NCBI GenBank assembly: GCA_017654855.1
Contig: CM030338.1
Coordinates: forward strand, 3,844,001 to 3,908,000
Length of the DNA stretch: 64,000 nt
Reading direction: 5' to 3'
DNA from: Podospora anserina
Taxonomy: Eukaryota
Each line of letters starts with the position of its first letter. The first letter of the stretch is position 1. Shown here in pieces: positions 5,150-53,199 of this stretch. A program made the translations under genes and the position numbers. A model generated the notes under the pieces. The model saw nothing but the letters and a program-made list of their open reading frames with translations. It was not told the DNA's origin and searched no databases.

Positions 5150-5912
5150 TTAAAAGATGACCGATAGACTTAAAAGATTATTATGTGGCCTACTTTTTCA
5201 TTTTTTTTAAAATAGGTGTAAGTTGGTGTATGATGCTTTAGCTACCTAGGTACCTTGGGAAGTAACAGGTTCACAAAACGTTTATATTTTATTTTTTATA
5301 ATTAGCAATCTAGAATATATTATCGCTATATCCGGAAACGGCAGCCTTCACGACCAGGTATAGTGCGCCGTCAGATTCGCGTCCTCATACAGTCTCCCCG
5401 CGCCCGCCGCATAAATAGAGCCCCCTGCTCTCCGACGTCTCTCTCTTATATATACTTTCGACATTTTCTCCTCCCCCGTATTCCCCTTTCGCTCGGTCCC
5501 TCGCCTCCTTATTTACTTCGCTTTTCCCCTATTTTTTTCGTCTATAGCCCGCTTATTTACTATCGTCCGCGCTTCAATATTTATTTGCACTACAATAAAT
5601 ACTTTACCCTTATCTTCTTTAGCGTCTCCTAATTATACCCGTTATTATATTACTTATCGAAATTTTTTCGGCCTTCATAGTTTTTATAGTATATTTCATT
5701 TATTATAATTTTTAAACTTGACTTTAATCTCCGGCTTCGAACCTTCTTTCTTTTTTTGAGCTCCTTAAAACCTACTTCGTTTCTCTTCGTTAATGATACT
5801 ATACCTCGTCTATCTCCCTCGCCTCTACTTTCTAGCATACCTCCTTTTGCCCGAAGGTTTAGAATATTTACCTACTGAATAAATTTCCCATTCCTTTTTT
5901 TCCCCGGGTAAT
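5150..5912. repeat. AT-rich, RIP-degraded repeat or transposon relic
   Basis: Locally AT-rich and TpA-rich, no credible ORF, directly abutting an LTR-like element. Boundaries are approximate. Confidence 0.55.
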
Positions 5913-6471
5913 TGTGACGAACCCCTATCCAGAACCTCTGAAAGGGATACTGGTCGGAGGCACTTCTAAACAATCCTAGTTCGGTATAGCTAAACAGTGT
6001 ATAATAAATGGCTTGTCTCGATCACAACAGTCTAGATACCAACGATTGTAACTTATAACTATTACATACTGCGGAACTATCTATCTACACCAGCCAGTTC
6101 CTCCGTATACATAGACCTTAATCCTCCAGTGCCACAGGTAAGCCAACAGGCAAGACGGACCGTTGTGCGGAGCACGACACGCACAATCAATCGTTTGTAG
6201 AACCAATCAGGACGGGAGTAGCCTCATCTGTAGGATCATTGCCAAGAGTCAATAATCCAGGAAACCACTAGGTCTATATATACGGAGGAACTGGCTAGTA
6301 TAAATAGATAGTTCCGCAGTATATAAATTAAGTTATAATCGTTGGTATCTAGACTGTTGTGATCGAGACAAGCCATTTGTTGTACACTGTTTAGCTGTAC
6401 CGAACCAGGATTGTTCAGAAGTGCCTTTAACCAGTCTCCCTTTCAGAGGTTCTGGATAGGTGTTCGTCACA
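5913..6471. mobile_element. Palindromic TG...CA-bounded LTR-like element with ~200-bp inverted arms
   Basis: Starts TGTGACGAACCCCTATCCAGAACC and ends GGTTCTGGATAGGTGTTCGTCACA. Arms 5913-6118 and 6270-6471 are reverse complements, with many C/T and G/A differences. Confidence 0.8.
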
Positions 6472-6557
6472 ACTGTTTAGCTGCACTGAACCAAGATTGT
6501 CTGAAAGCGCCTTCGACTAGTATCCTTTTCAGTGGCTTTGGATAGGGGTCCGTCACA
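6472..6557. mobile_element. Terminal fragment of a second, older copy of the same LTR-like family
   Basis: ACTGTTTAGCTGCACTGAACC...GGATAGGGGTCCGTCACA resembles 6386-6471. Confidence 0.7.
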
Positions 6558-17819: not shown

Positions 17820-18292
17820 TGTTACGCCCCAAGCGTAATACCCCTGTACAGGAACCACTGGGTGGTACCCGAGGTGCTGGGCACCTCAGCCAATCATTGG
17901 GCCAGGATGGAAAGACCCACCAGCCCCCGTGCAACCAATTAGGAGTTGCTCAGTCTGCTCAGTCTGCTCAGTGCGCCAAGACCACTGAGCACACTGAGCA
18001 CACTGAGCACACTAAGCAAGGTACAAAGATACTTCAGAAATATATATAGATAGTTTAATATAAATAGGGGGGAGCGCCGGGCGCTCCCCGTGTCGAGGAA
18101 TCTGATTCCTCATGCAAGCAATTCAAGTTCATTTGTCTACAATCTACTCTCAGTAGCTCTTTGTTAGAACAACCTGTTGTTGACAGTGAACCCGTGTCTG
18201 AGACGCTTGTCACAACCTTCGATCATCCTGTCATATTCACCTCTGGCGTACTGCCTTGCAGTCTGTATCCATTCCTGGTGCAGGTTGTAACA
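17820..18292 (+). mobile_element. Solo LTR (473 bp), copy 1
   Basis: TGTTAC...GTAACA termini; matches the reverse complement of 30587-31059. No target-site duplication seen (flanks GAGCG / GCACC). Confidence 0.85.
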
Positions 18293-19082
18293 GCACCCTG
18301 ACCTTATCTTATCATTCACCTGCCCTGCCCCACCGAGCCTTGCAGCCTTGCACCTTAAATTCCTTGCAGGCCAGGCCAGGCAAAGCCTTCCTTTCCTTTT
18401 TCTCTTCTTTAGCTTAGTATTTCGTCAATTGAGTGTAGCTTTGCAGCATTGTCTCTCGTTTGGCCACTTCGTGACAAGTACCATTAGATCTCTCTTTAAA
18501 AACACTTACTTTCTATACCGTGGAAGACTCCCAGGTAGCTAAGGAGGTCAGGGACCTACTTAAGAACTATACGCCGGCCGGAAAACGGCTTGCGGTAAGG
18601 ACTCTCACTAGTACTATATTTATACTGAGATCTGAGGCATCCATCCATAAAGCTGATGCGGCAAGGCACCAACAAAACGCCCACAAAGTCCAGGACGCAA
18701 AGAAAAGGCGCAAGTTAAATAGAGAAGATTCGAATTCTAAGTTTGTAAGGCTTTGTGACCTGGAAGAGGCTCGTATTGAAGGGAGGGTGGTGGAGGAAAA
18801 AGTGGTGCCCAAGGAGGATATGGAGCAGCCGGAGCCAGCCGAGCCTGTGCGGCGTAGCACACATTATCGGGTTCAAACTCGGCGTAAGAGGGAAGCAGAC
18901 AAAATGTCTGACTCTAACAGTGATTGAGCTACATTTTGGTATAACTTCCATAGAAATTGACCCAATATTGGTCTTGTTGTGGGGAGTATAAGCATTCAGG
19001 GGTAATCTCATTAAGGTTGTGTGGCTGGTGTGGGGGTGGTGGTCCATATTCGTGGGTGGGCCATTTCCTGGTCATCCAACCT
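18293..19082 (+). mobile_element. Right-end remnant of a Tc1/mariner (Fot1/pogo-like) DNA transposon
   Basis: ORF 18520-18927 (...KKRRKLNREDSNSKF...) resembles Fot1-type transposase C-termini. It ends in a 31-bp sequence GTGGGTGGGCCATTTCCTGGTCATCCAACCT(A) that is repeated at 31754. Confidence 0.55.
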
Positions 19083-19815
19083 AGTAATGGAATACCATTA
19101 CTTGACTTGCGCTTATACGCTCCTGAGATATGATGGAGTCGTCTGTTTGGTACATAAAGAACGCCCGGGAGTGACAAGGGTAACCGAGATGCTGGTCGTA
19201 GCTATGCTGTGCCAGTGACGGACTGCGCTATCGCCGTCTTCCAGCTCGAGGTCCTCTACAATGAGGCAGAGGAAACTGAGGTGGTCACGGTCTTATTGTG
19301 ACATGACGCCAACCCCCTATTATTCGTTGATTGGAAAGGTGCCGGCTGAGGATATGTTGTTATGGGCCTTCACTTGCTTCCAGATTTCAACCTTACAGCC
19401 TCTACAGAGGACGGCTAAGCGTACTGACGATAGGAGATTATGGACGGTGTTAGTGGTTGTAGACGCCACTATTGAAGACGGCCGTGGTGCCCTTGCCGAT
19501 GGTTGACGAGATGAGCGCTTTACTGCTGGGGTGATTTTTGTGAAATTGGTTATATATCATATTGTACATAACACTAGCGACAGTAACAAGAGCTTTTCCC
19601 GGTGCTAAAGAATTCTGGTTAATATCTACAGCATGCTTTGCAGCGCCTCGGAAAGAGCGGGATTTGAGCAGATACAGAGGCAATACATCCATTCATGAAG
19701 GTCTAGCAAACAGAATCTGGGTACTTTATCACCGACTGAGGTTAAATCCATCAACCTAACACTGGCAACGAAGGCATTTGATTCTGATCCTTCCCAAGCC
19801 GTGCAGCCTGAATAT

Positions 19816-20987
19816 TCAAGGGATGTATGGGATGACATCATCCGTATCCCAAGGAGCAATATAGTCGGCAGGAAGTTCCTCATCAGGTGGCACCTGATGT
19901 GCCTCAGCCCATACACGAACTGCCTCATAATTTTTGCATTTGTGTCGGGTGTTGAAATCGGGGAATGCCTGAGGTTGCTTCGTATTTGGCTGATGAGTCC
20001 ATACTTGCCCAAGCACCCCATTATCCACATTGCACATGAGCACTTGTCGAACGATATCTAAGCAATGTGCTAATAGACACACAATACGTCTTAGTACTCT
20101 GAAAATATAGGATGAGGTGCACTTGTACAGGCCAACTTACTAAGGTGACTTTTAAAGATATTTTCTTCGAGGTCAAACGCGTCATCGCCTATAGCCTTAT
20201 AATAATTGTAGTTGAAGTAAAGGGACTTGCGAACCAAATTCTAAATCCCAAGTGCTTTGGTTAGATGCTGGTAACAAGTATCCAAACATAACGTACCAGG
20301 CAATGTAAGTGGTGTAGGCCTTCCACATTCACGAAGAAACCACCTCCATATTTTTTTGCTCGTTGAACGTGGTGCTTTGTGAGCCCGCTCGCAATCCCTT
20401 CATTCTCTGGGATGATGGAGGCTCTATCTATTTCCCTGTTAGCCTTGCGTAACCCATCTCCCATTAACAATAATAACTAACACTCAATACCCAAAGCCTC
20501 CCATGCCGCGTCCACTCTGGGCGACCCTTGGAGACGATATACCACTTCTTTCATAAATGAACCATTAAAGGACGTGATTGAGTACGCGTGATCAACTTCG
20601 TTAAGCACGGGCGCTAAGTTTAGTTCATTGCCATCAGTATACTTATCCAAGAGTCAAAAATGCATAACACGCAGCAGCAGCAGTTGAACTTCTTAATTTA
20701 TAGATGAAAGTTGACTTACAGTACTGCGATGTGCGCATCGCACATTGCCGGTCCAGATCCATCTCTATTCCTTGCTGGATTTGTTGGCTGACAATAGTGG
20801 CTATTGTTATGCCAAGAATCAAGCCTAGCAGAAAGAAAAGCGACTTGATGAGTATTGATGGCAACAATGTTTGTCCTGGGGAACGACGTTGTCGGACCTT
20901 GGGGAGTAGCTCTGAACCATGATCCGAGTCGGAGTCTTCGCTTGTCCCTGCAAAGGAAATCTTGTCTTCGGACATACCTGAAGACAT
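19816..20987 (-). CDS. DUF3328 / UstYa-family oxidase A (multi-exon)
   Basis: N-terminal TM helix (LFFLLGLILGITIATIV); YRLQGSPRVDAAWEALG; VEGLHHLHCL; HCLDIVRQVLMCNVD; FPDFNTRHKCKNY. Confidence 0.9.
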
Positions 20988-21516
20988 CGTGGTGGCGACG
21001 AGGGCAATGATGCTCGTGATTGGGTATATGGGGGCCAGATAGGGGGAACGTTGGGAGGGGTTAATTGAGGGAGAAAGAAAGCAGCTGGAAGGGAAGGGTA
21101 AGGTACTTGTAATATATGCTGAAGATCTTAGCCGGAACTTGGCAGCTTTTAGCCCCTCATTGTACTTCTTGATCTACCAAGTAGGGAACCAAAAGTAACG
21201 TAGATATCTACAGGCAGGAAGTCAATAGATTATTTTTGTGTAGATTGATTAGGTACGCAGTTTTCTTCAGTGTTGTTTGCATCTAAGCACGAGAGACAGG
21301 ACTCAATTCTGCATTCAGTGAATGCGAATTACTTTATGAACCACCTCGCTAGCTAGGTAGGTATTTCTGAGAGACATGTCTGAAGCTTTGAAAAGGAATG
21401 GATAGCTGTGCGCAAATACCGCAAATGTTACTCGAGTAGACACATGAACACCAAAAAATGAAAGTGCAACACGGGTAACTCATTGGCTCCTCAGACTTCC
21501 ATGCGCTACATGTATC

Positions 21517-21968
21517 TCACATGCCAAAGAAGCGCTTGACCCCAACCACGCTCGTGTGTAGCCAAGAAGCTGAACTATCCATGGCCATAAGGTGTGCGCG
21601 GTATCCTTTCTCAAGGGAGTCAAGGTCGAGGTATCCGGGCCCCGAGGGAAGCTGATTGAACGTCAGAAACAATGAGACTCAGGAGCCAAAACCAATATAG
21701 CATACCCAGTGATTCGGGTGCTCCCATTCGAACTTCTTTTTGCCATAGGAATAGGAAGATACCCAGGCCGACCTAGTGGCCGAAGCGTCGACGGTCGGGG
21801 GAAGACCTGGCTCTCGCGTGTCGATGTCGAGTTTCTGGCGGCAGAACGCTAGTAAATAGACTTTTCTTCAAAGACTGGATGCCGAATCATTACCTCAGAA
21901 CTCATAGACGGAGCTATAGCCATGGAGGCTACGCCGGTGAAGGCTGTGGCAAAGATGAAGCCCCTCAT
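21517..21968 (-). CDS. 112-aa secreted peptide (3 exons), candidate RiPP precursor; absent from the ORF track
   Basis: Exons 21968-21894, 21834-21706 and 21651-21517; phase-0 introns of 59 nt (GTAATG..CAG) and 54 nt (GTATGC..CTGAC..CAG); start context CAACA-ATG. Protein: MRGFIFATAFTGVASMAIAPSMSSEKLDIDTREPGLPPTVDASATRSAWVSSYSYGKKKFEWEHPNHWLPSGPGYLDLDSLEKGYRAHLMAMDSSASWLHTSVVGVKRFFGM*. Confidence 0.75.
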
Positions 21969-22725
21969 TGTTGGGCAGCGTCGGTAGCAGTGCACAGTGA
22001 GAAGCAAGCAAGCACTTAGAAACAAAGAGAGGGAACCCTGTGTCCCAAAATGGGCGTATATGTAATGGGAAAGCGAGTGTGAAAGTTGAACGGCAACTTA
22101 ACTGCCGACCGCAGTATCCCAGAATGCAATACTATGTATGCAGGTAATGATGATGCGTGGGATAGGTAATATCAAGATGGTTTCGCTACTTTGACTTAGC
22201 TACTTACTCATATCGCTAGAGCTAGGCAGTGACGATGTCAAACCCCCACCTGGTCAAGTAATATAAAGAGCAATAGTCTTGGCCCCTGCAATTCCTCTTA
22301 TCATGCTGACCGCCTAAGGTCCGGTTCTTCGGGTATACCAGATGCTCGGGTTTGCCAAGTCTAACTTCCCTTTCCACGTACTGCCCCCCACCCCCTCTGG
22401 TCTCGGAACCTCCCATCTACTCCCCGTGCCGCCCTCCTTATGCTGCCCCTACTATAACTACCATGCTGATGCCTAAAGCCCGGTTATTCGGGTGTACCAG
22501 ATGCTCGGGTTTGCCAAGTCCTCCCCTCCCTTTCCCCCTCCTCCATTTGCCCCTCCTCGTCCGGATCCTCGTCTCGCCCTTCCGTTTGCCACCCCTCCCA
22601 TCCCATCCCGCCGCTTCCCCCAGCCAAGGCCCAGCCAGTACATCTCTACTCCCAATCCACGGATGCAAAGGGGCAAGAAATTTCCATGCGCCACGAGACA
22701 GTGAGAGATACCTCAAGGAGAAATC

Positions 22726-23800
22726 ATGTTCCAAAGCAGACAATATGTTCGCCTCAGAAACATAGGCCCAGACAGCACGTCAGGCGACACGGCAACCCGA
22801 AATGGCTCTGCAGCTCATCATCATAAACCTTTGCCACATTCTCTTCGCCGACCAGCCACAGCCACCATAGTATTTCTCGTCTCGATAGTTTTGAACTTCT
22901 TTTTGTTGGGAAAAGTCTTGCTCTCAAACACTGCACGGTACCGGATATTGACTTACTGTAAGTGCTGCCTCACCTTACATGATTCAGCTATGGCTGATTA
23001 ATGAATGGAATAGCTCCGGCTTTACCTGCCATTAGCCATGAACGGGTTGTTTTCTCCAGCGGTTTTGGTATTGAACAATCACCATTCCAGGGGCCACCTT
23101 CGGAGGAGAACAACAAGCTCTGGGCTGGTCTCTATGACTGTAAGTTGCGTGCTGAAAACGCTTTGCTTCCTGATGTTATGCTGAGAACTGGCTCGTTTAA
23201 AGTCGGGATCTCGAGGATTAGCGCAGACGAAGCCCGGCCAATGGACAACAAAACGCTCCCGATTCCAGGTCGAGAGGGTGGATATGTTGTCCAACTGAGT
23301 GTGTTCCATCAACTTCATTGTTTGGTAAGATTGTCCCGGCCTACATTATTTTTGCATGGTCAACCAAAGAGTAACACAGAGCGTCATTCTCAGAATCTGA
23401 TCCGGAAAGGCTTATATGGTGCTGTCGATATGACAAACGTGGACGAGCTGCTGGGCATAGAACATCTCGATCACTGTCTTGATATGCTCCGACAGAGCGT
23501 AATGGTACAGTCTCCTCACCACTTCCTATCCTGTCTTGAACAAAACATGTGATACTCAGCAGGCTAACAAGAGCTATTGCTAACCAAATATAGTGCAGCA
23601 GTGACATAACGCCAACAACATTTGCCCGTCAAACTTCCTCCTCTCCCATGAAGATTGTCGCCGAGGTCGTGCACACTTGTCGGAATTTTGCCAAGGTTCA
23701 GCAATGGGCATGGAATAGACGGCTGACAACGGAACTGGACAAAAATACGCTAGTCACCAACGATCCTCTAGGTTGGGGAACTTACACATATTCTCCTTGA
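22726..23800 (+). CDS. DUF3328 / UstYa-family oxidase B (multi-exon)
   Basis: TM helix IVFLVSIVLNFFLLG; FQGPPSEENNKLW; LSVFHQLHCL; EHLDHCLDMLRQSVM-CSSDIT; HTCRNFAKVQQWA. Confidence 0.9.
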
Positions 23801-24037
23801 ACGGGGTTTGATTGCGAGCTTTGCTGTCTGTTGGTAGAAACAACACACGCGTTTCTAGTTCAAGTATCATATGTGCCAAGTTTTATTCCATTGCCTAGGT
23901 ATTTCAATATCCATTGTCTCATCTATATTTCTCATTGACTCCCCTTGATAGCCACCAGGCTGGAGTGAGGTAAATTTATTTGTCTGTGAACATGCCATTG
24001 GCTAAACTCGAAAGTGTTTGCTTGAACTCCTGAAACC

Positions 24038-24949
24038 TTAGTCTTCTGCATACTTACCAAGTTCAGAATCATGCTTCCATACCCACTCCGATATTTGTGA
24101 GAAATTTCTGCACATGTGGCTTGTCGAGACACGAGCTTCAGGTTGCTGATCGCCAAGATCAGTGTAGAACAAGAGATCGGTGCCACTGTTGCACATCAGC
24201 ACCTGCCGTAGCAAGTCAATACAGTGATCTTGTGGTATTAGCGTAATGTACCTAACATTTGGATTGAGTTGCAGTGATTTTTGTTAACTTACCGACATGC
24301 TTCCACACAATCTCGGGGGGGTTTTGGAAAGTATCAACGTGTTTATAATAGTCTCTCCAAATGTACTTTCGAGTGATGTCCAAACAGTGGAGATGATGGA
24401 AAACCTCAACAGTGGCATAATAGTGATTGTTCACGCCCTTGGTGAGCTTTGTTGTCGGATCAAAATCCTGCAGAGTTTTGTTGTCGACAAGAATCATGGG
24501 ATCTGTTTTGGATATATCGTTGGTCAACTTCGGTAAATAAAAAACACCGTGAGATACATACGATCAACTAATTTGTTCCAAGCTTCATCGAGTTCTTTGC
24601 GCGGCTCCCCTTTATAAACGGAGGCAGCGAAAAGCTCAGCATCGAACTTCACGGGGCTGACCGTCGCTAATTGTTCCAAAGGGTCTTTGGCCTTGATTAG
24701 CATGGGTACATGTGTCGAAGTACGTAGAGCAGAAGCGGATTACTGACAACTCCCTATGAGCCTCGTTTGACGATCGCCATCGCACGACCCCAAGAACTGC
24801 GGCGAACGGAGGCCTGGCTGACGTAAAGCCCAGATATTGAGGAAGATTGCAGTGGAGAAAAGAAACACATGTAGATACACAATGCTGCTCCTCGATCGCT
24901 TAGATGAGGGCATCCCCTTATCAAACTCTTGTAGATGACGGTCGTCCAT
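24038..24949 (-). CDS. DUF3328 / UstYa-family oxidase C (multi-exon)
   Basis: TM helix YLHVFLFSTAIFLNIWAL; YKGEPRKELDEAW; VEVFHHLHCLD; HVDHCIDLLRQVLMCNSG; HMCRNFSQISEWV. Confidence 0.9.
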
Positions 24950-25891
24950 TCTCACCAATATCAAAATGATGTTGTCGATACTCGATACTGGACAGAAGCG
25001 AAGGTGGGATGGGACAATCCAAACATGTGCTGGGATCCGTCCTTGACTACCTCGGTGGGTACCTACGAGATTATGCACCATCATCTACCGACGTTGTCAA
25101 CCACACGGCCTACACCCGCGGCGTGATAATATGAGCCCGCATTTTGCAATGCGTTGCCACCTGCGGGGTGTATTAACCGGTCATCTACCCTGCCGCTCGT
25201 CTGTGGGGGAACAGCACAACACCCCGAATCTCGTTCTTTTCTTGGCACCATGACCGCAACTCAGATGGTAATTACTCCATCAACAGGGACCGTCGAGGCC
25301 TGGAGAGCGATCTTGGTAGGCGCCAGACTCGTTAGATCGTGATATAACATAGCGAAAAAGGAGATGTAATGTATTTATTTGAAGGCGACGTTGTAGCCGG
25401 TGTATGAGGCCAAATTCGGACGGCGGGGCGCTCTCTAAATTAGGATCGGACCAGCGCTGGTAATGGGACAATTTCCTAATCCAATAAATCCTGGCAATCA
25501 ATTCAATTCTCCTAAAAAATTGGGGTTGATTGGATTATTGCATATGTACAGTACGAATGAGTCACCGGGGTGAGATATGGCCTAAGAGCGCCAATCTCTG
25601 TTTTCAGTAAATACGAGCACTGACAATTGTTGAGCTTTTCCGGTGTTTTCTGTGGTACGAGGCGGCCACCAGCCAACTCAAAAAAGCCCACTTCAGCCAG
25701 GTTTAGTCATCAAACAGTACGAATGAGTGGTTTTGATCTTGTACATACAGTGCACAAATACTGTGTGCACGTATCTGACCCTTGCAACGCGCCGACTCAA
25801 TAAGCCAGTGCCAGTGCTCCAACTCCAAACATCGAACGAAAAGCAACAAAACGAAAAACACGCAATATTCTCAACGCAGCAATTCGCAAGC

Positions 25892-27370
25892 ATGACGGCC
25901 CCTTCTCACAACCACGCCAACTACCAGGCGCGCCTTGACTACATTCGGGGACTTTTGGGAGATCACTTTGGTCTTTCTAACGAGGTAAGCACTTCACAAG
26001 GCTGCAATCGAACTTGACAATATGGAGAGTCCAAGGTGGAGTCCAGTCTCCACATACCTATCTAATAATTGGTGAAATCGCAGAACATAGCGGAGACCAA
26101 GATCACACCGATTCAATACGAAGCCGACTTCCCCTTCAAATACAACAACTTCGTCTACCGCCTCGAGGTTCCCGTCGACATATCCGATGACGGTGTTGAG
26201 CTGCCGGGATGCGTCCCCATTCCTGCAGGTGCTAGGGCGTTTATAATGCGCCTCAGCAACGCTGATGCTGAGGGCATGTACCAAGAAACCCGCGTGCAGA
26301 ATGAAGTCGCTATCCTTACCCTCGCCTCGGCGGCTCTTCGCCACATCAAGCCCAACATCGTCCCCCGCGTCTTCGGCTGGGGTGGTGCTAGTCAAGGGCG
26401 TTTGGGCTGGATCTTGCAGGACTTGATGCCCGGAGTACCGCTTGATAACGTGTTTAGCCCAACCGCGTCCCTGGAACAAAAAACCGCGGTTCTGAGGCAG
26501 ATGGCGGCTATTCTGAAGGCACTACAAGACTATCCGCTTCCCAAGAGCATTCAGGGCTGGGGAGGGTTGACTTTTGACAGCAACGGTGCCATTGTCAGCG
26601 CGCCTATGCCTAGCGTCGGTGCCGGGCCATGGTCTTCCCTCGAAAATTCCTACCGAGGCCGACTCAAAGCCGCACTCGACAAGGCAGATAAAAACCCGTA
26701 TCTAAAGGGATGGCGGCCGAACGACATCAGAGACCGTGTCGATGATTTCATCGAGCGTGGCTTATCAGCACAATTCTCTGACCTGACATCTAGCCATGAC
26801 AGGGCTATTATACACGCAGATTTCAGTAAGTCTTTTGTTCAATGTAACCTCCCTAGCGCTAACCTGAAGGTAAAAGCCTCGGACAATCTCCTCCACGACC
26901 CTGCGACAGGCCTAGTCACAGCGCTCCTCGACTACGACTTCAGCACTATTCTACACCCTGCCTACGAGTTCTTCCGCTCTTTTAGTCCCAACGGCGGTCG
27001 ATTTACTGGCTGGATCGCCGACTCAGACCCAGAGGGACAAGAGTTGTTAGAACTTCGGAGAGCCAAGCTGACCGGAAAGTTTCCTTCACCTCTTCCAACA
27101 CCTAGAGAGACTCCCAATGGTCCAGGGGTTGATTGGGAACTTGCGCAGGCGTGGGAGAATGAGCTGCAGAGAATAAATGTCAAGCGGCCTAGCACCATTC
27201 AGGGCATCGACAAACTTGCTGATGTAGACGAGCTCTTGGGATCCCTGACACCCTGGAGATTGATCAATACTGACTTTCTGAGGATGAATACGGATGAGGG
27301 CCAGAGAATGGCTTTGAGACGTATGGGTGAAGAGCAGCTTGTAGCCGTGTTGGATCATCTTGGGTTCTAG
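25892..27370 (+). CDS. Aminoglycoside phosphotransferase (APH)/kinase-like protein
   Basis: YNNFVYRL, RVQNEVAIL, VPRVFGW, WILQDLMPGVPL, IIHADF, intron, DNLLHD...TALLDYDF. Confidence 0.85.
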
Positions 27371-27645
27371 AAATAATTGATAGTACGTTACGGATCGTCT
27401 TAAGCGAGCCGGCGGAATTGACATGAATATTTGCTCCCCAGCCCAGAAACCTATCACAGTACAAGTACTCCCCCCCGCATAGACGGAATGCCAAGAGGAT
27501 GTCGGCTGAAACCACATTGCTCCCTCGTGGACTGGTGTTCATTCCTCCCCTCCATTCATATACAACACCCTGCCCGCCCGTAGTTGCCCGCGCCCGTGAC
27601 ATCCGTTCCTTTCTTCATTTACATCGTTTTCCAAAAGCTTCCAAA

Positions 27646-28697
27646 ATGTCATACGCGTCCTCACAAGCGCCCCATACTCCAAAGCTCTCGGGGACACACG
27701 GGCCAACTGAACAATCCGAGGAGGTCAAACCCCACGACGTCACCACCATCTTGAATTACTTCAAAGATAATGACGATGACTCAGCCGCCATACAGAGGAC
27801 GGTCGATAGCGGAGCAGAAACATACGCCAGTAAATTCGAGCCGCAAAAAAGCGTCATCCATGACATCCGTGGTAACGAGTCTCAATACACTTTAGATGTT
27901 CAGGGATTCCAAATCGTTGGCCATGATAGCAAGGAAAAGTGTTTTCTCGATGACGAGCATGTTCGAAACATCTACTACCCCGAAACAGAAGAACTACTGA
28001 AGAAAGTGTAAGTCAACATTCTATATAGAGAAGTTTAGATAGATATATACTTATAGATGTCGGGTAAATCAGCACTGGGGCTTCCAAAGTCTTCATCTTC
28101 AACCACACCATCCGCGGCGGTCCTCTCAGCAAGGCCCACCGCCACCGCGGTCCTGTTCACCGAGTCCACATCGACGTATCATATGTCGGGGCCCACAGGC
28201 GCGTCTCTCATTATTTCCGTGATAACGAAGCCAGGCTTGCTGCTCTGCTCAAAGGACGGTACCAAATCATCAATGTCTGGCGGCCTATCAAGAATATCTT
28301 GAAAGACCCTCTTTGTGTCGCAGACGCTGGCTCTGTTCCAGAATCAGACTTGGTTCCAATCAAATTGCTTTTTCCCCCAGATGTTGTGACGGCAATGACG
28401 ACGAGTGAACCGATTCATTCCGTGATGGGGGCAGCAGCAAATCCGAAGCACAAGGTAGATAGTACGGATGGAGAGACATTTTCTGTGAGAGCGAATCCGG
28501 GGCACATGTGGTATTATCTGTATAGACAGGCGACCGACGAAGTGTTGTTGATCAAGTGTTTTGACTCCAAGACGGACGGGAGCGTAGCTCGGAGGGCGCC
28601 GCATACGGCCTTTGTGAACAAGGAGCATGAGGATGAGCCTGAGAGGGAGAGTATTGAATTGAGAACGCTCGTGTTCTATTCGGATGACACTGAGTGA
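27646..28697 (+). CDS. AsaB/CmcJ/GA4-desaturase-like putative Fe(II)/2-oxoglutarate hydroxylase-desaturase
   Basis: IHDIRG..YTLDVQGF, YYPETEELLK, FNHTIR, VHRVHID, RYQIINVWRPI, PLCVAD, WYYL...KCFDS, PHTAF, RESIELR. Confidence 0.85.
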
Positions 28698-30586
28698 GAG
28701 TTGGGGGGAGGATAAGCCCGCAGGCGGAATAGGCTGAATACAAACTTTTTTACGTATTTAAATAGCTCCAAGAAGGCGAGGGCTGGAGTCCATCGGGTTA
28801 TGGAGCGGGAAAATACACGCCAGATGTACAAACCAACACGCTCACACAACAAGGCTAATCGGCGGGATGACGGATGGATACTTAGTACATGTTCAAGAAC
28901 ACAGTGTGCGTTCTATGCTTAATCTAAGATTCATTTCGATGTGACAGGTGTGATTAACCTCAAGTTTGCTCACCCTGCTCAGGGCCTTGCTCACCCAGCT
29001 CAGGGCCCCACCCAAGGCGATGGACTGTAGGTTAGCTCAGCATCTCGGATACAGGAAAGATGATGCCTTATCAACTTGATGTAGTGGTAGTCCCCTCAGT
29101 GGATGAGAGTGAGCTACAACCATTTGTCGCAGGTTGATCAAGTTTGGCCGCTGGCGGAAGACTAACCCCGGCGCCGATGAGGGATGAGACCGGGCTGAGA
29201 GGGAGTCAGTTAGATGCCCAAGTGGACAAGTGACTGTAGTTAAGTGTGGGAGTTTAGAGACTTGCTGGAGATTAACTTCGAAGTCTAAAGTGGCGTCGGT
29301 GAGTAGCATTTGCGGCTTAGGTAAGTCGGGCGTCAAAGAACTTGTCTTATGTGTCATAAAGCATGAGTTAAATGCCTTACGCTGATGATGTGGCGTAAGA
29401 CTTAAGCTTAGCGTTTAGAGCAAGCTTTTCATTAAATGGAAAGAGTCCTGAGTCCTGATAAATATCTCCCATCCACCAAAAGATAGCCTTTCCCGACACA
29501 CCACATATATACAAACCCCCAAAGCAGCACTTCGACAAAGAAACCACCCTGGCAACGTCGAGCCAATCATGGCGCTGGAGGAACTGGAAGAGCGCGTCAC
29601 GCTAGTAAACAACATCGAAAGGACGCTAATATAAACAAATTTTCCAAGGGTTAAAGGACCGGCGAAACCTAAAGACCATCTGCTAGACGAGACATTCATG
29701 ATGCTGGTGATGGTCACCCCGTTGCCGTCGCTAAAGAAACAGAAGAAGCTTTTGGAGTAATGAGTGCGGAGTCAGTTTAAGGAGGGCTGTCCCGCATCAC
29801 GTGAAGCTTCTGACAGCTGTGGTGCCCCACCAAACCGCCAAAGCAGGTCGAGATTTGAGGTTTGCGACACAGTTGCCGAGCGCTGGGAAAGGGGCGCCAG
29901 AACGCCACATTGTAACGAGGAGGAGAAATTTCACTTCTATTTACCAAATTCTACGTTTTGAGTTGCTAATTCTAATGTTAATTGTCACTTGTGTTCCTAA
30001 AAATACGCTTGAACGACCCCTCTCTCGTCGGTTCGATACTCTCCAGTGACTCAATCGGCGAGCTTCGGCCGCAATTACCAACGCTCACCTCCAACGCCCG
30101 TCGACGCGATACAATAAGCCTTCAACGACGTGCGACCTCCCTAAGCATCCCCCCTTGGGTACTAAAACGAAGCACTTGCATTAACTCGATTAAAGAATAA
30201 GGCTGGGCGTACCGAAAGCTGGCTATGGAGGATTTGGAGGGGTCCCATCTACTTCGCCAACCTTGTCCTATCTCACACCCCCACCTGATTTCTCCGCCAT
30301 CCCACTAGAGGTGGTTGTATCGTTCAAGAGTGTCTTGAAGGCTGGGTTAAAACGAAGAGACAAACGGTACTTAATATACAAATAACGTATAAAAAGCTGG
30401 CAGTTTTTCATTATTTTTTCTCCTTCCGAGGGCAACGTTTAGATTAGAGAAGTAAGTTCGATTCAATTTATGGTTTGTTTTTATTATGCCTGAAGTTTTG
30501 AGAAGGGTTTTTATTATGCCTGAAGTTTTAAAAAGAGTTTCCATTATCTTAATTTAAAGCTAATTAAAATAATCTATCGAACTTTA

Positions 30587-31059
30587 TGTTACAACCTGCA
30601 CCAGGAATGGATACAGACTGCAAGGCAGTACGCCAGAGGTGAATATGACAGGATGATCGAAGGTTGTGACAAGCGTCTCAGACACGGGTTCACTGTCAAC
30701 AACAGGTTGTTCTAACAAAGAGCTACTGAGAGTAGATTGTAGACAAATGAACTTGAATTGCTTGCATGAGGAATCAGATTCCTCGACACGGGGAGCGCCC
30801 GGCGCTCCCCCCTATTTATATTAAACTATCTATATATATTTCTGAAGTATCTTTGTACCTTGCTTAGTGTGCTCAGTGTGCTCAGTGTGCTCAGTGGTCT
30901 TGGCGCACTGAGCAGACTGAGCAGACTGAGCAACTCCTAATTGGTTGCACGGGGGCTGGTGGGTCTTTCCATCCTGGCCCAATGATTGGCTGAGGTGCCC
31001 AGCACCTCGGGTACCACCCAGTGGTTCCTGTACAGGGGTATTACGCTTGGGGCGTAACA
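30587..31059 (-). mobile_element. Solo LTR (473 bp), copy 2, inverted relative to copy 1
   Basis: Reverse complement of 17820-18292; the ORF-track translations over both copies are identical. Flanks CTTTA / TCACG, no TSD. Confidence 0.85.
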
Positions 31060-31183
31060 TCACGGTATCTTGTGTTTACATTGAGACATCTTGTTGTGCA
31101 CTGTTTAGCTGCACCGAACCAATTGTCAGAAGTTACCTTCAACCAGTATCCCTTTCAGAGGTTCTGTACAGGGGTTCGTCACA
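31060..31183. mobile_element. Terminal fragment of the LTR-like family seen at 5913-6557, abutted by the 473-bp LTR
   Basis: CACTGTTTAGCTGCACCGAACC...CCCTTTCAGAGGTTCTGTACAGGGGTTCGTCACA is similar to 6385-6471. Confidence 0.7.
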
Positions 31184-41887: not shown

Positions 41888-43283
41888 CTAGACAATCAAC
41901 TTCATGGTTCCCTCATCAAACCCCACGTTCATCGCCCTCTTGCTGAGAAGTGGACTCGCCGGCCCAATCTTTTCCCATTCGTGAGCATCCAGGCAGGCCT
42001 GTCTCGAAGCAAGTACGGCAGGTCTCGTTCTCGCCACCGCTTTGTCTTCGTAGCCGTCAAGTGCAACCCTCATGTCTGTCGGGGATCCATCGAGGTGGGG
42101 GATGACAGTGTCGACAAACTCTTTGACGTCAATGATGGCGTGGTTGGCGCCTTCTCCTCTGTCTGTTTATTGTCAGCTAGGGTGGATGAGATAGGGGTGG
42201 GAAGAGCAACATACACATGGCCATCGGGTGAAGAGCATCTCCCATCAGGACAACCTTGCCAGTCGTCCGAAGGTCCTTTGGGGGAGGCCAGTCGTACAAG
42301 TCCAGGCATTTCACCTCGGTCGTCTGCTCAGGGATTGTCATGGCGAGGGACCGGAACGGCTCGGCCCATGTTGACGCAAAAGCCTTGATCAACTTGATGC
42401 TGTCAAGATTCGTCTCTGGATATGTGATCGGGGCGGCAGAGTTGAAGAAATTGTCCCGAACAGGCCATGAGACGACAATCTGGCAGGTGTAGGTGTCCCT
42501 GCCTGTGCCGTTTCCAGGGGCATCGAGTGCTTTGGTGCCTGATGTTAGCTTTGTGTGACACCACTCTCAGGGTCAAAAAAAAAAAAGGGGGCACTCACTG
42601 CTAAAGTAAACAAACGTATCATTCTCCGACGCGGCTCCCTGGAGGAAATACGGATCGAGCTTTCTCAGCGGCTCGATCTCTTCAGGCGTGCACTCAACCT
42701 TGACACCCATCAACCGGACCGGAATCTTGAACTTTTCGCTGTCGGGGAACAGCACCTGTCTCAGCCGTGAACTCCCGCCATCACAAGCAACAACCAAACT
42801 TCCCTCCTCCGACACTGTCCCATCCTCAAAATGAACTCTCACCGAACCGTCCTGCTCATCCGTTTCGAACTTGCCGGTAGCGCCCTTTCCGAACTGGATA
42901 TCCAACCCAGTGGCCAGTAACCGTCGAAACTTATCCCTGCTCACTCTGATACGCTGAGACTCATCCGCGTTTGGGGTGGAGGCCTTCAGCTCACCAGTGC
43001 TGAGGTCGTAAAAGGGAAACGTCGAAGGCCGCCCTTCTTCCACGGCGGACCGGTCGACATAGGCCTCTGGGAGACGGGAGACCAGATCGTCAGGAAGAAG
43101 AGACCGGACAGCGGGCAGTGACCAATGAAGGGTGAGGCCCCAGCCGAGACCGCGGGTGTCCAAGTCCGAGTCGCGCTCGTAGAGGCGGAAGGGGATGGAC
43201 GACTTGCGGAGGTGCTGGGCCAGGAGGAGGCCGCTTATCCCCGAGCCCACGATCAGGATGGGTTTCTGGTTGGTGCTGCCCAT
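41888..43283 (-). CDS. FAD-dependent monooxygenase
   Basis: ILIVGSGISGL, YERD, VACDGGSS, VVLMGDALHPM; multi-exon. Confidence 0.9.
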
Positions 43284-44595
43284 GTTTGCTCTGGCTGGTG
43301 GCTTTCGATAACAATCTCGCCGTCCCTTGGAAGGAAACTAATAACTGCTCCTTCTGTTTGTGTTCCTCCTTGCCTTGATATCTCCCCACGAAATGATATG
43401 CCAATATTCCCAAGTGGTCAACCTGGCATTATCATAATTCCCGCGGATCCGGTATCCTAGCACGGACTGGCGCGTGTGTGTGCAGCGTGGTGATGGCCCA
43501 ATATTCAACTGTGCTATCTGTGAAGGTGGTGGTCATTGGACCCTGGAGTGGTGCCATGGGTGTCAAGGGTTCTGGTGTTGTACTGGAATGGAATGCTTGG
43601 AAAGGGCGCAGGATTGATCCCCCCGCCGGGCCTTTCCGACCCATGGTTGCTCCTCCCCCACGATGCGACGCTGATGAGATTCAGTTGGACTGGCCGTGGG
43701 GACAAGGGGACTAAACACACCCCTGCCTTGCCCTGCGTGAATCCATGTCCAATTGTCTCTTTCGGACTCGCCCCGATGCGTGGAGCTAGCAGCCAACACG
43801 CGCATTTTGTTGATAAACGATACGAAAAATCGACAGGTTTTCTGCAATGAAAGTACAGAAGCTGCAGATAGAGACCCTCATCTCCAGTCAGGTCTGCAGT
43901 TGCAGTGACCAACATGAATCAGCTAGCGGCCTTTCGTGGTTGCACGGAACCGGACTGCTGGGATCGAGATCCGTCTTTTCTTGCTGTCGTTTGTTCTTGG
44001 TTGAGACCCTCTCTCTCTCTTTTTCTTTTTTTTTTTGCTTTTTCTTTTAGTTACCTCATGTTGGTGATGTGATAATTCTTGTGGGGGAAGAAGCTGGGCT
44101 GGAACATCAATGGTATGATGTGGAAATCCCATGGTATGATATCACACGATGTCGATGGCTTGTGGAAAAAAAGAAGAAGACGCACGAAGCGAAGTTCGTT
44201 GAGCTACTGACGCCTCTGCCGGCGCCTGGAGTGAGGTGGTGGCAGCCCTAGTTTAGATGCCGCTCTCCCGAGGAGCGTTTTTAGCTGGGCACGGCTAAAA
44301 ATGCTTGACCAACCTCCGTTGTCGGTGATTTTCTCTGGTTTCCATGACTGCAACATCAGAAATTTCCATGCTACTACCTATTGTATATCTCATCAACCCG
44401 TTACATACTTCAAACTCGGTTGTCACTGTGGCCTTTAATAGTAGCTATATGCTTGACCGGGCTTTATCAGGAGAATCCTCCCCAACTCTCAACCACGGGC
44501 AACCCGGTGATTATTCTACTTTTCAGATACCGGTAGCCTCTGTCCGCTCGGACCCTTCCCTCCGAGGTGGCTACTAGAACGGCTAGAACACAGCT

Positions 44596-48685: not shown

Positions 48686-50215
48686 CTACACCCTCGCCAA
48701 CGCTCCCTTGAATATCTCCACAAACCTCCACACATCCTCAAACCGGCAATACATCGGCACCGGAGCCACTCTAATCACATCCGGCTTCCTCGCATCGCAG
48801 ACAACCCCCTCCTCCGCCAACACTTTACTCACACCCTCCAATATCCCCTCCCTCAGCATCAAACTCAACTGAGTCCCCCTCTCGAGCGGGTTCCCCGGCG
48901 TGATGATCCTAAAAGCCTGCTCCTCCCCCTTCCTCCCAACCCCCCCTCTGATCAGCCCCTCCAGCAAGCATTCCAGATACCCCGTCAGCACCACCGCCTT
49001 ACCCCTCAACCTCTCCATATACCTCTCCCCCACCGACTCAAACACCCCCAACGCAGCACTCACACTCGCCAGGTCAATCGCACTCGGGTTGCTCAACTGC
49101 CAGCCGCTCGCCCCCTTGCTAGGCTTGAACTCCTTCTCCATCAGAAACCTAACGGACTTGTCCGCTCCATACCAACCCTCCAACCTGTCCAGGTTTTTGG
49201 AATGGTGTTTTTGGTGAAGGAACAAGCCGGCTGTCGACCCCGGTCCGGCGTTGATGTACTTGTAGGTGCACCACACCGCGAAATCGACGTTCCAGTCGTG
49301 GAGGTGGAGTGGGACATTGCCGGCCGCGTGGGCGAGGTCCCAGCCTACGCAGGGGATGCCGAGGGAGTGGGCGTGGGCGGTGATGGTTTTGATGTCGAGG
49401 AGCTGGCCGGTGTAGTACTGGATTCCGGGGAGGAGGACGAGAGCGGTGGAGGGGGCGTGCTCGGTTATGGTGGCGAGAATGGATTCGGTGGTGAGGTAGA
49501 GGTCGGGGGTGGGTTGGATTTCGATGAGGGAGGTGGAGGGGGAGAGGTTGTGGTGGCGGATTTGGGATTGGATGGCGTACTTTGTGGGGTTAGAAGTCCG
49601 GAAAAGGGAAGAATGGGAGGGAGGAGACATACCCAGTCTGAAGGGAAGGGTTTCCACTCGATGATGACTTTGTGTCTTTCTGCTGTTGGCTTGTAGAAGG
49701 AGGCCATCATGAGGTGGAGGTTGGCGGTGAGGGTGTTCATGTAGATGATCTCTTCTGGCACAGCAGCACCAACAAGGTCGACCGATTTCCTGGCACAAGA
49801 CTCGGCCAGGTCTTGCCAGCTGGACAGAGGCGAGTTTTCGAGGGTTGAAAAGTGACCGTTGACACCGATGCTGGCCCATGTTTCTAGCTGTGACTCAAGG
49901 GCTCTTCTCACAGCTTTTGGCTGAGCGCCGAGGGAGTTTCCAACAAAGTAGATGCTCTTTTCATCTTCACTGTCGTTTTCCCCTACGAGGTTGTTAGAGT
50001 CTGCTGGTTCAAGCACAGAGGGCGCAACACATACCGGGACTGACCCCATTCAGAGCCTTCTTCTTCAACGAAGTCCTTGTGGGAATATTGAATTCTTTTC
50101 TGAGGTGGCCAAGCTTGTCTTGCTGATCAAGACTTTGAGCGTATTCAAGAGTTCCCGCTTCAGCTGGAAATGACGGCTTCTGGCCGCTCCGGAAGGCTGC
50201 TGTGAGAGAATCCAT
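48686..50215 (-). CDS. BNA5: Kynureninase (PLP-dependent)
   Basis: [74 protein letters not shown]. Confidence 0.95.
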
Positions 50216-51190
50216 TGTGCCGCTGTTGACACAGAACTACAAGACTGAAACTGAAAGGGAAGATATTGTATCGACTTCCATGAGGCCATATCGCACTCCC
50301 CCTTTCTATCCCCTGTATCACTTTATACAAGTCCACAAACCGTTTTCGGAGGCCACGTGCCGTGTCACCATTTCCATGCTCCCGGGTCGGAGTGGGCCCC
50401 AGACGGGTTTCCGCGATCCGTCTTCCGCACCTTTCCGTCTTCCGCACTTCCGCAGCTCCACCATACAAACGGACGATGACGCCGATTAGGGGTCCCAAAG
50501 ACAGCAATAACAGGGCTGAAAAATTACAGAGAAATCCAAGCTGACCGACTCCAGGACCAGTTTTGCAGAATCTTGGTTGGGGTAACCACATGCTGCAATC
50601 GGGCAAAGCCCATCACAAAACGTCATCTCAATGCATCAATCCGACCCTTGTTTGCACACCTGCACGGACTCATGTCTATTGAATATTGAACTGTGCCTTA
50701 CTCCTTACCACCGACTCGACTCGACTGGATTCCCGGCCCGTGTTATATTCGTCAAACAAAAGAGCTGCCAAGACGACATCGGACGGCGGCTTACACCTCC
50801 TACCTGCACAGCATTCTGCACCTGTACGCACACCGGCCCTGCCATCTTGTTATCAAACAGAAAAAAACGCCGCTAATCTGTGCTCGGAAGGACGGACGGA
50901 GCTAGAGGCATCATACAGGTAAAACGTCACCATGATCTCGGATCATCTGGTTCGGCCCAGCTTCTGTTTGTCTGCCCAAGCCCAGTGCCAACTGCCAAAG
51001 CCGTTGTTGACCGCTGGCCCCCTTGCTGACCGATGGGGCATCTTATCGAGCCCCCGTTTCTATTTCTTCTTTACCGAGATGTTCCCCCTACTCCTGACCC
51101 TTTGCCACCCATCTCATCTTCCGCGCTCACCTGAATCTTGACTACCGCTTCTGGGTTTTGTCTCACTTCATCCAGTCTTCCGCTCTCACC

Positions 51191-52595
51191 ATGTCACCCT
51201 GCGAGCCACTGCCTGCTACCAAGGCTAATCACAGTGATGTTTCTCGCGTCCTATCAGACGACTTTGGTGTCACATCCAATGCTTTCCTTCCAGAACAACA
51301 ACCTCTCTCGAGGCTTCCAGATCAATACTATGCCCCCTGGGAAACCATTGTCTCTTCTCTTTCCTCCCACATTCAACAACAGACTCTCCGCCAGGAGGTA
51401 GACAGATTGCCAGTCCTATCAACAGACCGCCTCGCCTCAGAAGCCGAATGGAGACGAGCCTATGTTGTCTTGGGCTTCCTCACACATGCCTACGTCTGGG
51501 GAGGTGACGTTGCTTCCGAGGTCGGTATTTCACTTGAACCAGCACCACCTTACTTTGAACTGACACAACTCACAGATCCTCCCCCCACCCATAACTGTCC
51601 CTCTCCTCTCCGTTTCCAGACACCTCTCTCTTCCCCCAGTAGCCACCTATGCCGCGGTCAACCTCTGGAACTTTTCTTCGGTATCTCCAACATCCGACCT
51701 CGCTGACCTCGACTCCCTCACCGCACTCCACACCTTCACCGGCACTCAAGATGAGTCCTGGTTCTACATGGTCAGCGTCGCCATGGAGGCCCAAGGTGGT
51801 CCTATCATCCCCGTCATGCTCTCCGCCCTATCTGCCCTCCAACACCACGACCTTCCCGCCGCCACCGAGGCCATCAACGAAATCACCTCCTGCATCCACA
51901 AACTGGGGATATTGCTCGACAGGATGGACGAAAGGTGCGACCCAGAAGTGTTTTACCATCAGATCCGCCCTTTCCTAGCAGGCAGCAAGAACATGGCCGG
52001 GGCCGGGCTGGCAAACGGCGTGTTCTATGACGAGGGACAAGACGGCAAGGGAGAATGGAGACAGTACCGAGGAGGAAGCAACGGCCAAAGCTCGCTCATC
52101 CAGCTATTTGACCTCGTGCTGGGAGTTGAGCACGTCGCGCAGGGTAATGCGAGTCCGGACTCGTACTCGCGGGAGAAGAAGATGGAGAGTTTCCACAGGG
52201 AGGTCAGAGGGTACATGCCGGAGCCGCACAGGAGGCTTCTTGAGTTTGTGGAGGGGCGGTACCCAGGAGGATTGAGGAAAGGTGTGGAGGATTTGTTGGT
52301 GACACCAAGCACAGAGGGAAACGACGGTGAGAGAAGGGAGTTGAGGGAGGCGTTCACGACGGCGACCAAGGCGCTGGCCGAGTTTAGGAATAAGCACTTG
52401 CAGATTGTGACGCGATATATCGTGATCCCGTCGAGGAAGGAGAACAAGGCCAAGGGAAGTAACTTGGCGACGGCGTCATCGAGGCTGGCGGGGGATGATG
52501 ATAAGAAGCTGACGGGGACAGGGGGGACTGCACTATTGCCGTTCCTGAAGCAATCACGGGATGAAACGTTTCGCGCGGGGGATTTTTCGCGATGA
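51191..52595 (+). CDS. IDO: Indoleamine 2,3-dioxygenase
   Basis: RRAYVVLGFLTHAYVWG, FTGTQDESWFYMVS, FYHQIRPFLAGSKN, GGSNGQSSLIQ, FRNKHLQIVTRYI, GTGGTALLPFLKQSRDET. Confidence 0.95.
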
Positions 52596-53199
52596 AAGCC
52601 ATGTCATGTCAGGTCATGTCATGAAAAAAAGGAGGGAACTTTGCTGTAGGATAGCGGGGCTTGTGATATGCGGCGGGCGGCTGATGAATGTGTGTCTCGA
52701 CAAATAGAAGATGATGTTCTTGAACAAGTTCAAATGCAGAACTTTGTCTCGGCAATAAACAACCCACATCCGCGGGGTCGGGTCTCCGGTTTTTGCGGCG
52801 GGTGGCCCCCAAAGTTCCCCCCAGTTCCTTACTGCGGTAGGGCGCCGTGCAAAGTTCCTTTGATTACCCGCTTTACTGCACATCATGTTGGAACTTTTGG
52901 GGTGTGTCTCGGCCAATCACAGCCCACAATGGCTTCGCATTCGCAAGCACCACTGCCAAATATCCCACTTGCTCTGATCATGTTGCAGTAGATCTGCTAC
53001 GTAGCATTGCCATCTCACTACCGATGGATGATGGATGGCATAACCCTACTTTACCTACTTGATCAATACACATAGACATCTCCTCATTCTCATCCTTGCT
53101 GCCGTTGTCTTTTCCCTCCGCTAGCTACCTCTTCTCTTTTCTTCTTATTCCCTTTTTCTTTCTTTCTATTATATATACACTTTATACAACCACATCACC

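Follow-up and report, generated by a model that had tools for sequence, protein, structure and literature searches.

What do three clustered UstYa-type oxidase genes act on when the gene lying among them encodes a small secreted protein? The question arises from a 64,000-nucleotide window of the Podospora anserina genome (GenBank assembly GCA_017654855.1, contig CM030338.1, positions 3,844,001 to 3,908,000), in which a first-pass annotation had marked 19816..28697 as a candidate locus for a dikaritin-like peptide that is made on the ribosome and modified after translation (RiPP). The marked interval runs exactly from the stop codon of one oxidase gene, UstYa-A, to that of a dioxygenase gene. 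We found six transcribed and spliced genes there: three encode UstYa/DUF3328 oxidases, one a small protein with a signal peptide, one an APH-fold kinase, and one a CmcJ/NvfI-type dioxygenase.

Our answer, drawn from genes and transcripts, is that the locus encodes a UstYa RiPP pathway of the dikaritin type, to which we assign a probability of about 0.6; it is probably a previously undescribed pathway for a modified ribosomal peptide. This reading fits best because a family of repeat-bearing small proteins co-locates with UstYa and APH genes across fungal orders. Moreover, a near-invariant 16-residue unit in variable tandem copy number (one to five) is what multi-core precursors show. Few classes of fungal RiPP are known so far, and it is only recently that DUF3328 enzymes were shown to be binuclear-copper oxidases; the locus offers a compact gene set conserved across orders, with a conserved kinase partner.

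The small repeat protein and its family

Transcript evidence came from contigs of four runs, one from each of four studies, mapped on positions 18300-30580; in the records of these runs, RNA is no more than a guess. Over the genes, the contigs show no differences from the window. They cross 13 canonical GT..AG joints within the six genes, and these joints, together with a poly-A end at 27440, indicate that the contigs derive from transcripts. Contig depths vary widely from gene to gene and can rank neither the genes nor their co-expression.

The small gene (coding sequence 21517..21968, minus strand; transcript 21288-22217; introns 21835-21893 and 21652-21705) is spliced in contigs of three runs (X1, X2, and X6) and encodes 112 amino acids. 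This bears out the small secreted-peptide gene of the first-pass annotation. Exon 1 encodes a signal peptide, judged by inspection of the hydrophobic N-terminus, which is conserved across the family described below. Exon 2 carries one unit of the type PTVDxTSTRxxWVSSY, located at 21751..21792 (minus strand) from its V-D start to its W-V-S-S-Y end, which we propose to comprise a core and a recognition half. Exon 3 encodes a conserved C-terminal "follower" domain (21520..21651, minus strand) with the pattern HW/LPxGPxYLD...LExGY.AHLM...SW...KRF, where the slash marks the intron. Exons 2 and 3 of the RNA contigs rule out another model of the gene, with a 45-nt intron, an 86-residue product, and YLPIP/YAIL motifs. 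A six-frame motif scan of the window found exactly one unit and one C-terminal domain.

A word-based search with exon 2 returned two proteins. The first, from Podospora australis (143 residues), is an orthologue that carries the exon-2 unit twice; the window's gene carries it once. The second, a 450-residue gene model from Fusarium proliferatum, fuses a small-protein homologue with a UstYa-A orthologue, and this fusion implies that the same two genes are adjacent there, with order and strand kept. The family is rare and distinctive: an exhaustive HMMER search, with the P. australis protein as query and 1.84 billion representative sequences as target, gave only 26 matches at E<=1e-3, 13 of them at E<=1e-10. 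We read 23 of the 26 matched sequences, and a motif scan covered 27 proteins, namely all matches but the weakest plus the P. australis and F. proliferatum proteins.

In members with good gene models the architecture is the same: a signal-peptide-like N-terminus, one to five tandem units, and a conserved C-terminal stretch of about 50 residues. The scan located 42 units in 21 of the 27 proteins, with the 16-residue consensus PTVDxTSTRxxWVSSY; the six proteins that lack a unit are short fragments or C-terminal pieces. Within the unit, D, R, and Y occur in 42/42 copies and W and V in 41/42, at positions where the search pattern permitted alternatives. Alignments of the C-terminal domain show invariant positions for G, P, L, and Y/W. 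The intron after "HW," at the border between repeats and C-terminal domain, recurs in a metagenome contig described below (L001), and several database models read through it. The C-terminal stretch is rich in His and Met in many members; its His residues are not invariant in two alignments, and we therefore give low weight to copper binding by this stretch.

AlphaFold2 predicted the small protein to be a disordered chain, as expected of a pro-peptide (mean pLDDT, the model's own confidence score, 49), with C-terminal helices at low confidence only. Comparison with a protein Atlas gave only weak leads (<0.9), including an alpha-factor-like precursor cluster at 0.78. When the small-protein alignment was used to scan metagenomes, 22 pattern matches resulted, none of which was confirmed. 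Among the new transcripts listed in a re-annotation of P. anserina is a 165-residue member on chromosome 1 with three exons and three units; the portion of the report available proposes no function for it (PMC9801653). Our literature search, which covered subscription journals thinly and was directed at the unit motif, at the pairing of DUF3328 with a phosphotransferase, and at novel families of UstYa precursors, found no published description of the small-protein family; because of that thin coverage, an earlier description may exist.

Partner enzymes and recurrence in other fungi

A distance of 529 nt separates the small gene from UstYa-A, and one of 757 nt separates it from UstYa-B. UstYa-A (19816..20987, minus strand) has five exons and encodes 296 residues, or 292 with an alternative acceptor. 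Its introns are 20614-20719, 20436-20483 (or 20424-20483), 20241-20296, and 20070-20140, of which the last is supported by RNA contigs of X1 and X2; the other three are predictions based on GT..AG sites, on the reading frame, and on similarity to the homologous fused F. proliferatum model. UstYa-B (22726..23800, plus strand; 265 residues) has all four introns in RNA contigs (22958-23013, 23140-23202, 23324-23392, and 23504-23592). UstYa-C (24038..25084, minus strand; introns 24229-24292, 24503-24561, and 24685-24747) is represented by RNA contigs from all four runs and encodes 286 residues from its first ATG at 25084, or 241 from the ATG at 24949.

The claim that these are three anchored, multi-exon DUF3328 genes held in each respect. 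Pfam PF11807 matched the exon open reading frames (ORFs) 19816-20136 (3.7e-18) and 20261-20476 (1.2e-05) of UstYa-A and 22998-23552 (2.4e-22) of UstYa-B. In UstYa-C three exon ORFs matched, among them 24038-24283 (5e-12) and 24252-24563 (2.4e-12). Exons of the three genes scored 66.6, 80.3, 46.6, and 47.6 bits, where the cutoff is 25. Each protein has one strongly hydrophobic 19-mer near its N-terminus, placed near residue 45 in UstYa-A, and each carries twin HxxHC motifs: HHLHC and HLTHC in A, HQLHC and HLDHC in B, and HHLHC and HVDHC in C. These are the hallmarks described for the family, the copper-binding motif HxxHC(x)nHxxHC together with a membrane anchor at the N-terminus, in enzymes that form homodimers with a binuclear-copper, O2-dependent oxidase site, attack peptide C-H bonds, and turn their catalytic part toward the organelle lumen (PMC12435403). 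Pairwise identity among the three is just 32-33%, which marks them as old paralogues rather than recent copies. Orthologues of UstYa-B that are 52-63% identical to it occur in Xylariales, Magnaporthales, Sordariales, and Dothideomycetes.

Beyond UstYa-C lies the kinase gene (25892..27370, plus strand; 442 residues; introns 25983-26081 and 26826-26876), which appears in RNA contigs from all four runs and whose transcript ends in the poly-A at 27440. The APH-like assignment made from the letters alone was confirmed by Pfam PF01636 (3.6e-11; 43.7 bits against a cutoff of 23.2) and by HxDxxxxN and DxD catalytic motifs in the translation, which are invariant or nearly so in an alignment of homologues. 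The nearest solved folds, APH(2''), choline/ethanolamine kinases, and APH(4), are small-molecule kinases (Foldseek probability 1.00; TM score normalised to target up to 0.57; model mean pLDDT 63).

The last gene of the set (27646..28697, plus strand; 328 residues; intron 28008-28072) encodes an Fe/2-oxoglutarate (2OG) dioxygenase of the CmcJ/NvfI/AsaB type, likewise as had been read from the sequence at first pass. Exon 2 matched NCBIfam NF041278 (CmcJ/NvfI) at 160.5 bits against a cutoff of 80, and exon 1 matched profile positions 2-88 at 53 bits. The protein aligned with the solved 2OG dioxygenase 7eus at 1.7e-23 and with NvfI at about 1e-13, and RNA contigs show its transcripts to be spliced.

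Does this set of genes recur elsewhere? We read fungal co-location from locus tags and contig sizes compared across three homologue lists, in which 14 named species have a member of the small-protein family; consecutive numbers of the Joint Genome Institute style suggest, but do not prove, adjacency. In seven of the 14, a homologue of UstYa-B or APH carries a neighbouring tag, shares a small contig with the family member, or is fused to it. Neighbouring tags were found in Nemania abortiva (240114/240115, with the APH homologue on a contig likewise of 248,937 nt), Xylaria telfairii (531544/531546, all three genes being on a 135,266-nt contig), Anthostomella pinea (133480/133470, the second being the APH gene), Gaeumannomyces tritici (GGTG_04771/04772), and Chaetomidium leptoderma (29571/29572). 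F. proliferatum contributes its fused gene model, and in Podospora australis both proteins are encoded on one 10,200-nt contig. Independently, neighbouring tags also link the UstYa-B and APH homologues of Drepanopeziza (009585/009584) and of Peltula (006831/006829).

Scanning metagenomes with the APH alignment yielded 13 loci. On one 7.1-kb contig (L001), the small gene, cut by the contig end, is followed by a UstYa-B-like gene, a UstYa-C-like gene, and the APH gene, in the order seen in our window with the APH gene alone inverted. On a second (L003, 8473-11490), a UstYa-C-like gene diverges from the APH gene, an arrangement that the window shares. The other 11 loci show the APH gene alone; several of them are short or carry an APH of only about 48-54% identity, perhaps a paralogue.

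Judged by these comparisons, the conserved core appears to be the small repeat protein, the UstYa oxidases, and the kinase. The gene set proposed at first pass thus recurs in several fungal orders as far as the small, UstYa, and APH genes are concerned; the dioxygenase did not follow, with a CmcJ match in 0/13 of the related metagenome loci. This is a weak test, because few of these loci hold a UstYa gene (2/13) or a small gene (1/13). Co-conservation of the dioxygenase with the rest was not found, and this expressed neighbour may be a candidate pathway member only.

A probable ribosomal peptide pathway and its alternatives

How might such a pathway work? The precursor would enter the secretory pathway, where a protein with a signal peptide would meet the UstYa enzymes in the lumen, since the catalytic part of DUF3328 proteins faces that side. 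Acting as O2-dependent binuclear-copper oxidases, as shown for CctR, the three enzymes would act on side chains of the candidate core, the invariant W-V-S-S-Y segment, by oxidation or cross-linking; Tyr- or Trp-based ether or C-C links and C-H hydroxylation are possible chemistries. Recognition might lie in the N-terminal half of each unit (TVDxTSTR), in the C-terminal domain, or in both. A modified peptide of some 7-9 residues would be released by proteolytic cuts behind the invariant Arg and at the basic residues frequently found past the Tyr. The kinase could O-phosphorylate the peptide or product on the hydroxyl of a Ser, Thr, or Tyr, as tailoring or as self-protection, and the 2OG dioxygenase might tailor the product in this lineage only. 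A complex prediction for two copies of the luminal part of a UstYa-B orthologue with the adjacent small protein of the same species gave a score of 0.00 and no verdict, which speaks neither for nor against binding.

Known dikaritin clusters pair a precursor with UstYa-type genes: ustA with ustYa and ustYb for ustiloxin, phomA with phomY for phomopsin, aprA with aprY for asperipin-2a, and vicA with vicYb for victorin. As defined in the sections available of two reports, a dikaritin precursor has a signal peptide and tandem repeats separated by kexin sites, with a DUF3328 gene nearby (PMC12048977, PMC9632046). The signal peptide and the nearby UstYa genes are present here, and tandem units occur at the level of the family, whose members have one to five (two in P. 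australis, one in the window's gene). Flanking Kex2 sites (KR/RR) are missing. The first-pass proposal of a dikaritin-like ribosomal peptide gains much from the co-located repeat-bearing family, although this hallmark is not shared. The anchored, twin-HxxHC character of the adjacent UstYa enzymes, the lack of an NRPS, and a likely core rich in aromatic residues (W, Y) are further likenesses. Unlike in dikaritins, the 16-residue units are conserved over their full length, this genome has a single unit, a conserved domain of about 50 residues follows the repeats, and a conserved APH-fold kinase stands alongside, whereas the locus showed no tyrosinase, methyltransferase, S41 peptidase, or transporter. 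To our knowledge, neither an APH-type kinase nor a conserved follower domain is present in any characterised dikaritin cluster, and we know of no kinase-dependent fungal RiPP that would precede this one.

Other known systems resemble the locus in part. Kex2-processed repeat proteins (KEPs) are likewise secreted repeat pro-proteins, widespread in fungi and sometimes encoded beside DUF3328 genes, but their defining feature, dibasic Kex2 sites between cores, is absent from these units; a kinase accompanies the genes here, and the available part of that study mentions no kinase partner (Umemura 2020, PMC7329392). The cyclochlorotine enzymes CctR, CctO, and CctP2 share family and motif with the UstYa proteins, along with a presumed O2- and electron-dependent C-H oxidation at binuclear copper. 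Their substrate, as given in the accessible text, is an NRPS cyclopeptide (PMC12435403), whereas here a ribosomal repeat protein is co-located and no NRPS is. Plant burpitides offer a parallel in copper-dependent cross-linking of Tyr and Trp side chains, repeated cores, and a recognition sequence per core (PMC12186524, PMC12435403). They belong to an unrelated kingdom, are made by an unrelated BURP-domain cyclase fold, and, according to the section of the report available, often have their cores fused to the cyclase (PMC12186524).

Several observations weigh against a RiPP pathway of the dikaritin type. A pattern scan found no KR or RR pair beside any of the 42 units: Lys directly follows the unit Tyr in 18/42 and the four positions after the Tyr often include basic residues, KR is present only near the C-terminus, and a single invariant Arg lies within the unit. 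The window's small gene has just one unit, and conservation extends throughout the protein, including the 50-residue C-terminal domain, which would suit a small functional protein too. The kinase and the dioxygenase have no signal peptide and are predicted to be cytosolic, and hence would have no direct contact with a luminal substrate. Between the inverted repeats that flank the locus, we recognised no gene for a protease, transporter, or regulator. As for recurrence, the genes share only a megabase-scale contig in Bombardia and Pseudovirgaria, and the denominator of the 7/14 co-location count includes five species without neighbour information (Nemania serpens, Xylaria arbuscula, Elsinoe ampelina, an Annulohypoxylon sp., and Podospora pseudocomata). 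Finally, contig L003 shows no small gene within 10 kb either side of its UstYa-C-like/APH pair; given this locus, the oxidase-kinase pair may be a module by itself.

Some of these points would also fit a small protein that works whole and uncut, as a secreted or luminal partner or docking factor of the UstYa oxidases, or with its repeat region cross-linked in place. Its C-terminal 50 or so residues are as strongly conserved as the units, many members have the His/Met-rich stretch, dibasic sites beside the units are lacking, and an accessory protein that delivers electrons or Cu(I) to DUF3328 enzymes has been postulated (PMC12435403). Set against this are the inconstancy of the C-terminal His residues, the predicted disorder of the chain, and one to five tandem, near-invariant units that suit a multi-core precursor, and we regard an uncut role as unlikely. 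A different alternative, that the UstYa enzymes and the kinase tailor a non-ribosomal metabolite of a distant core synthase with the small gene as a bystander, draws on the action of DUF3328 enzymes on NRPS products such as cyclochlorotine (PMC12435403). The arrangement on L003, the small-molecule-kinase fold, and a kinase homologue of 50% identity in Talaromyces islandicus point the same way. Unlike a bystander, however, the small gene stays beside UstYa genes in Sordariales, Xylariales, Magnaporthales, Hypocreales, and a metagenome contig. As the first-pass annotation had also noted, no NRPS or polyketide synthase (PKS) domain appeared in our Pfam scans of the 64-kb window, which covered 37 of 139 ORFs of >=110 residues (the longest per region, four of them re-checked) outside the cluster and 15 ORFs within it; a distant synthase with a bystander gene is in our judgement improbable.

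The segment could also have no joint function at all, being a repeat-bounded island of paralogous oxidase genes beside unrelated ones. Perfect inverted repeats and mutated debris, both described below, do bracket it, and contig depth, though unable to rank genes, differs widely among them. Gene order conserved in distant fungi, intact catalytic motifs, and the splicing and expression of every gene make such an island very improbable.

With a UstYa RiPP pathway as the preferred reading, a bolder version can be formulated: a new fungal RiPP class in which each unit carries its own recognition half (TVDxTSTR), the W-V-S-S-Y core is cross-linked by UstYa enzymes, release proceeds without Kex2 dibasic sites, a dedicated APH-fold kinase performs O-phosphorylation, and the follower domain docks the precursor to the oxidases. 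We offer this full combination tentatively and consider it possible but rather doubtful as a whole. Still, the 16-residue unit with its invariant D, R, W, V, and Y is a sharply defined candidate substrate. It opens to heterologous expression the role of each of three divergent UstYa paralogues on one short peptide, as well as recognition without Kex2-type repeats and phosphorylation as tailoring versus self-protection. Homologous loci are present in plant pathogens (Gaeumannomyces, Fusarium, and Elsinoe) and in lichen-associated fungi, and the product may have ecological roles.

Intergenic elements, flanking repeats, and the wider window

The small gene and UstYa-B diverge from a shared promoter region, with transcript 5' ends at about 22217 (minus strand) and at 22391 (plus strand), respectively. 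Two 78-nt direct repeats, at 22299-22375 and 22459-22535, occupy the promoter and 5' leader interval 22299..22535; they are 86% alike and rich in CGG/CCG triplets. Lying in the divergent promoter and the long UstYa-B leader, these repeats may be shared regulatory sites. ORFs that span them at 22310-22765 fall in the same promoter and leader, and we rejected them as a gene. Between UstYa-C and the APH gene, about 40-90 nt of the interval 25628-25717 is matched by contigs of all four runs whose flanks are unrelated; it is a short element common to other transcripts.

A 473-nt inverted repeat brackets the whole gene set, with a left arm at 17820..18292 (plus strand) and a right arm at 30587..31059 (minus strand). 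The arms are 100% complementary and separated by 12,294 nt, and this 12.3-kb segment might invert or move as a unit. The P. australis contig is only 10,200 nt long, and its assembly may break at flanking repeats there too. Just inside the left arm, 597 nt at 18487-19083 match an internal part of a very abundant 4.7-kb transcript contig of X1 with 35 differences. Among the 32 changes classed by type, 24 have A/T in the window and G/C in the transcript, and the piece looks like a fragment, mutated by repeat-induced point mutation (RIP), of a gene located elsewhere. Between the dioxygenase gene and the right arm, 29194-30580 gives rise to further spliced transcripts with a GT..AG joint at 30130-30195 and, in one run only, a CT..GC joint at 29195-29265; the ORFs of this stretch have no Pfam match. 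A structure resembling a miniature inverted-repeat transposable element (MITE), with 144-nt inverted arms (92%), occupies 5912-6472, and a related 48-nt piece lies just beyond the right arm of the large inverted repeat (31136-31183).

Elsewhere in the window, the Pfam scan identified HeLo/Ras, FAD-oxidase, HODM-like, luciferase-domain, DUF2855, MFS, fungal-rhodopsin, kynureninase, indoleamine 2,3-dioxygenase (IDO), and NmrA families. The kynureninase and IDO genes, of tryptophan catabolism, lie close together at 48686-52595; an NmrA-like gene is located at 53125-53949 and an FAD monooxygenase gene at 42573-43337. Near the start of the window, a single ORF at 181-1740 combines HeLo and Ras/Roc GTPase domains, an architecture typical of fungal non-self-recognition genes.

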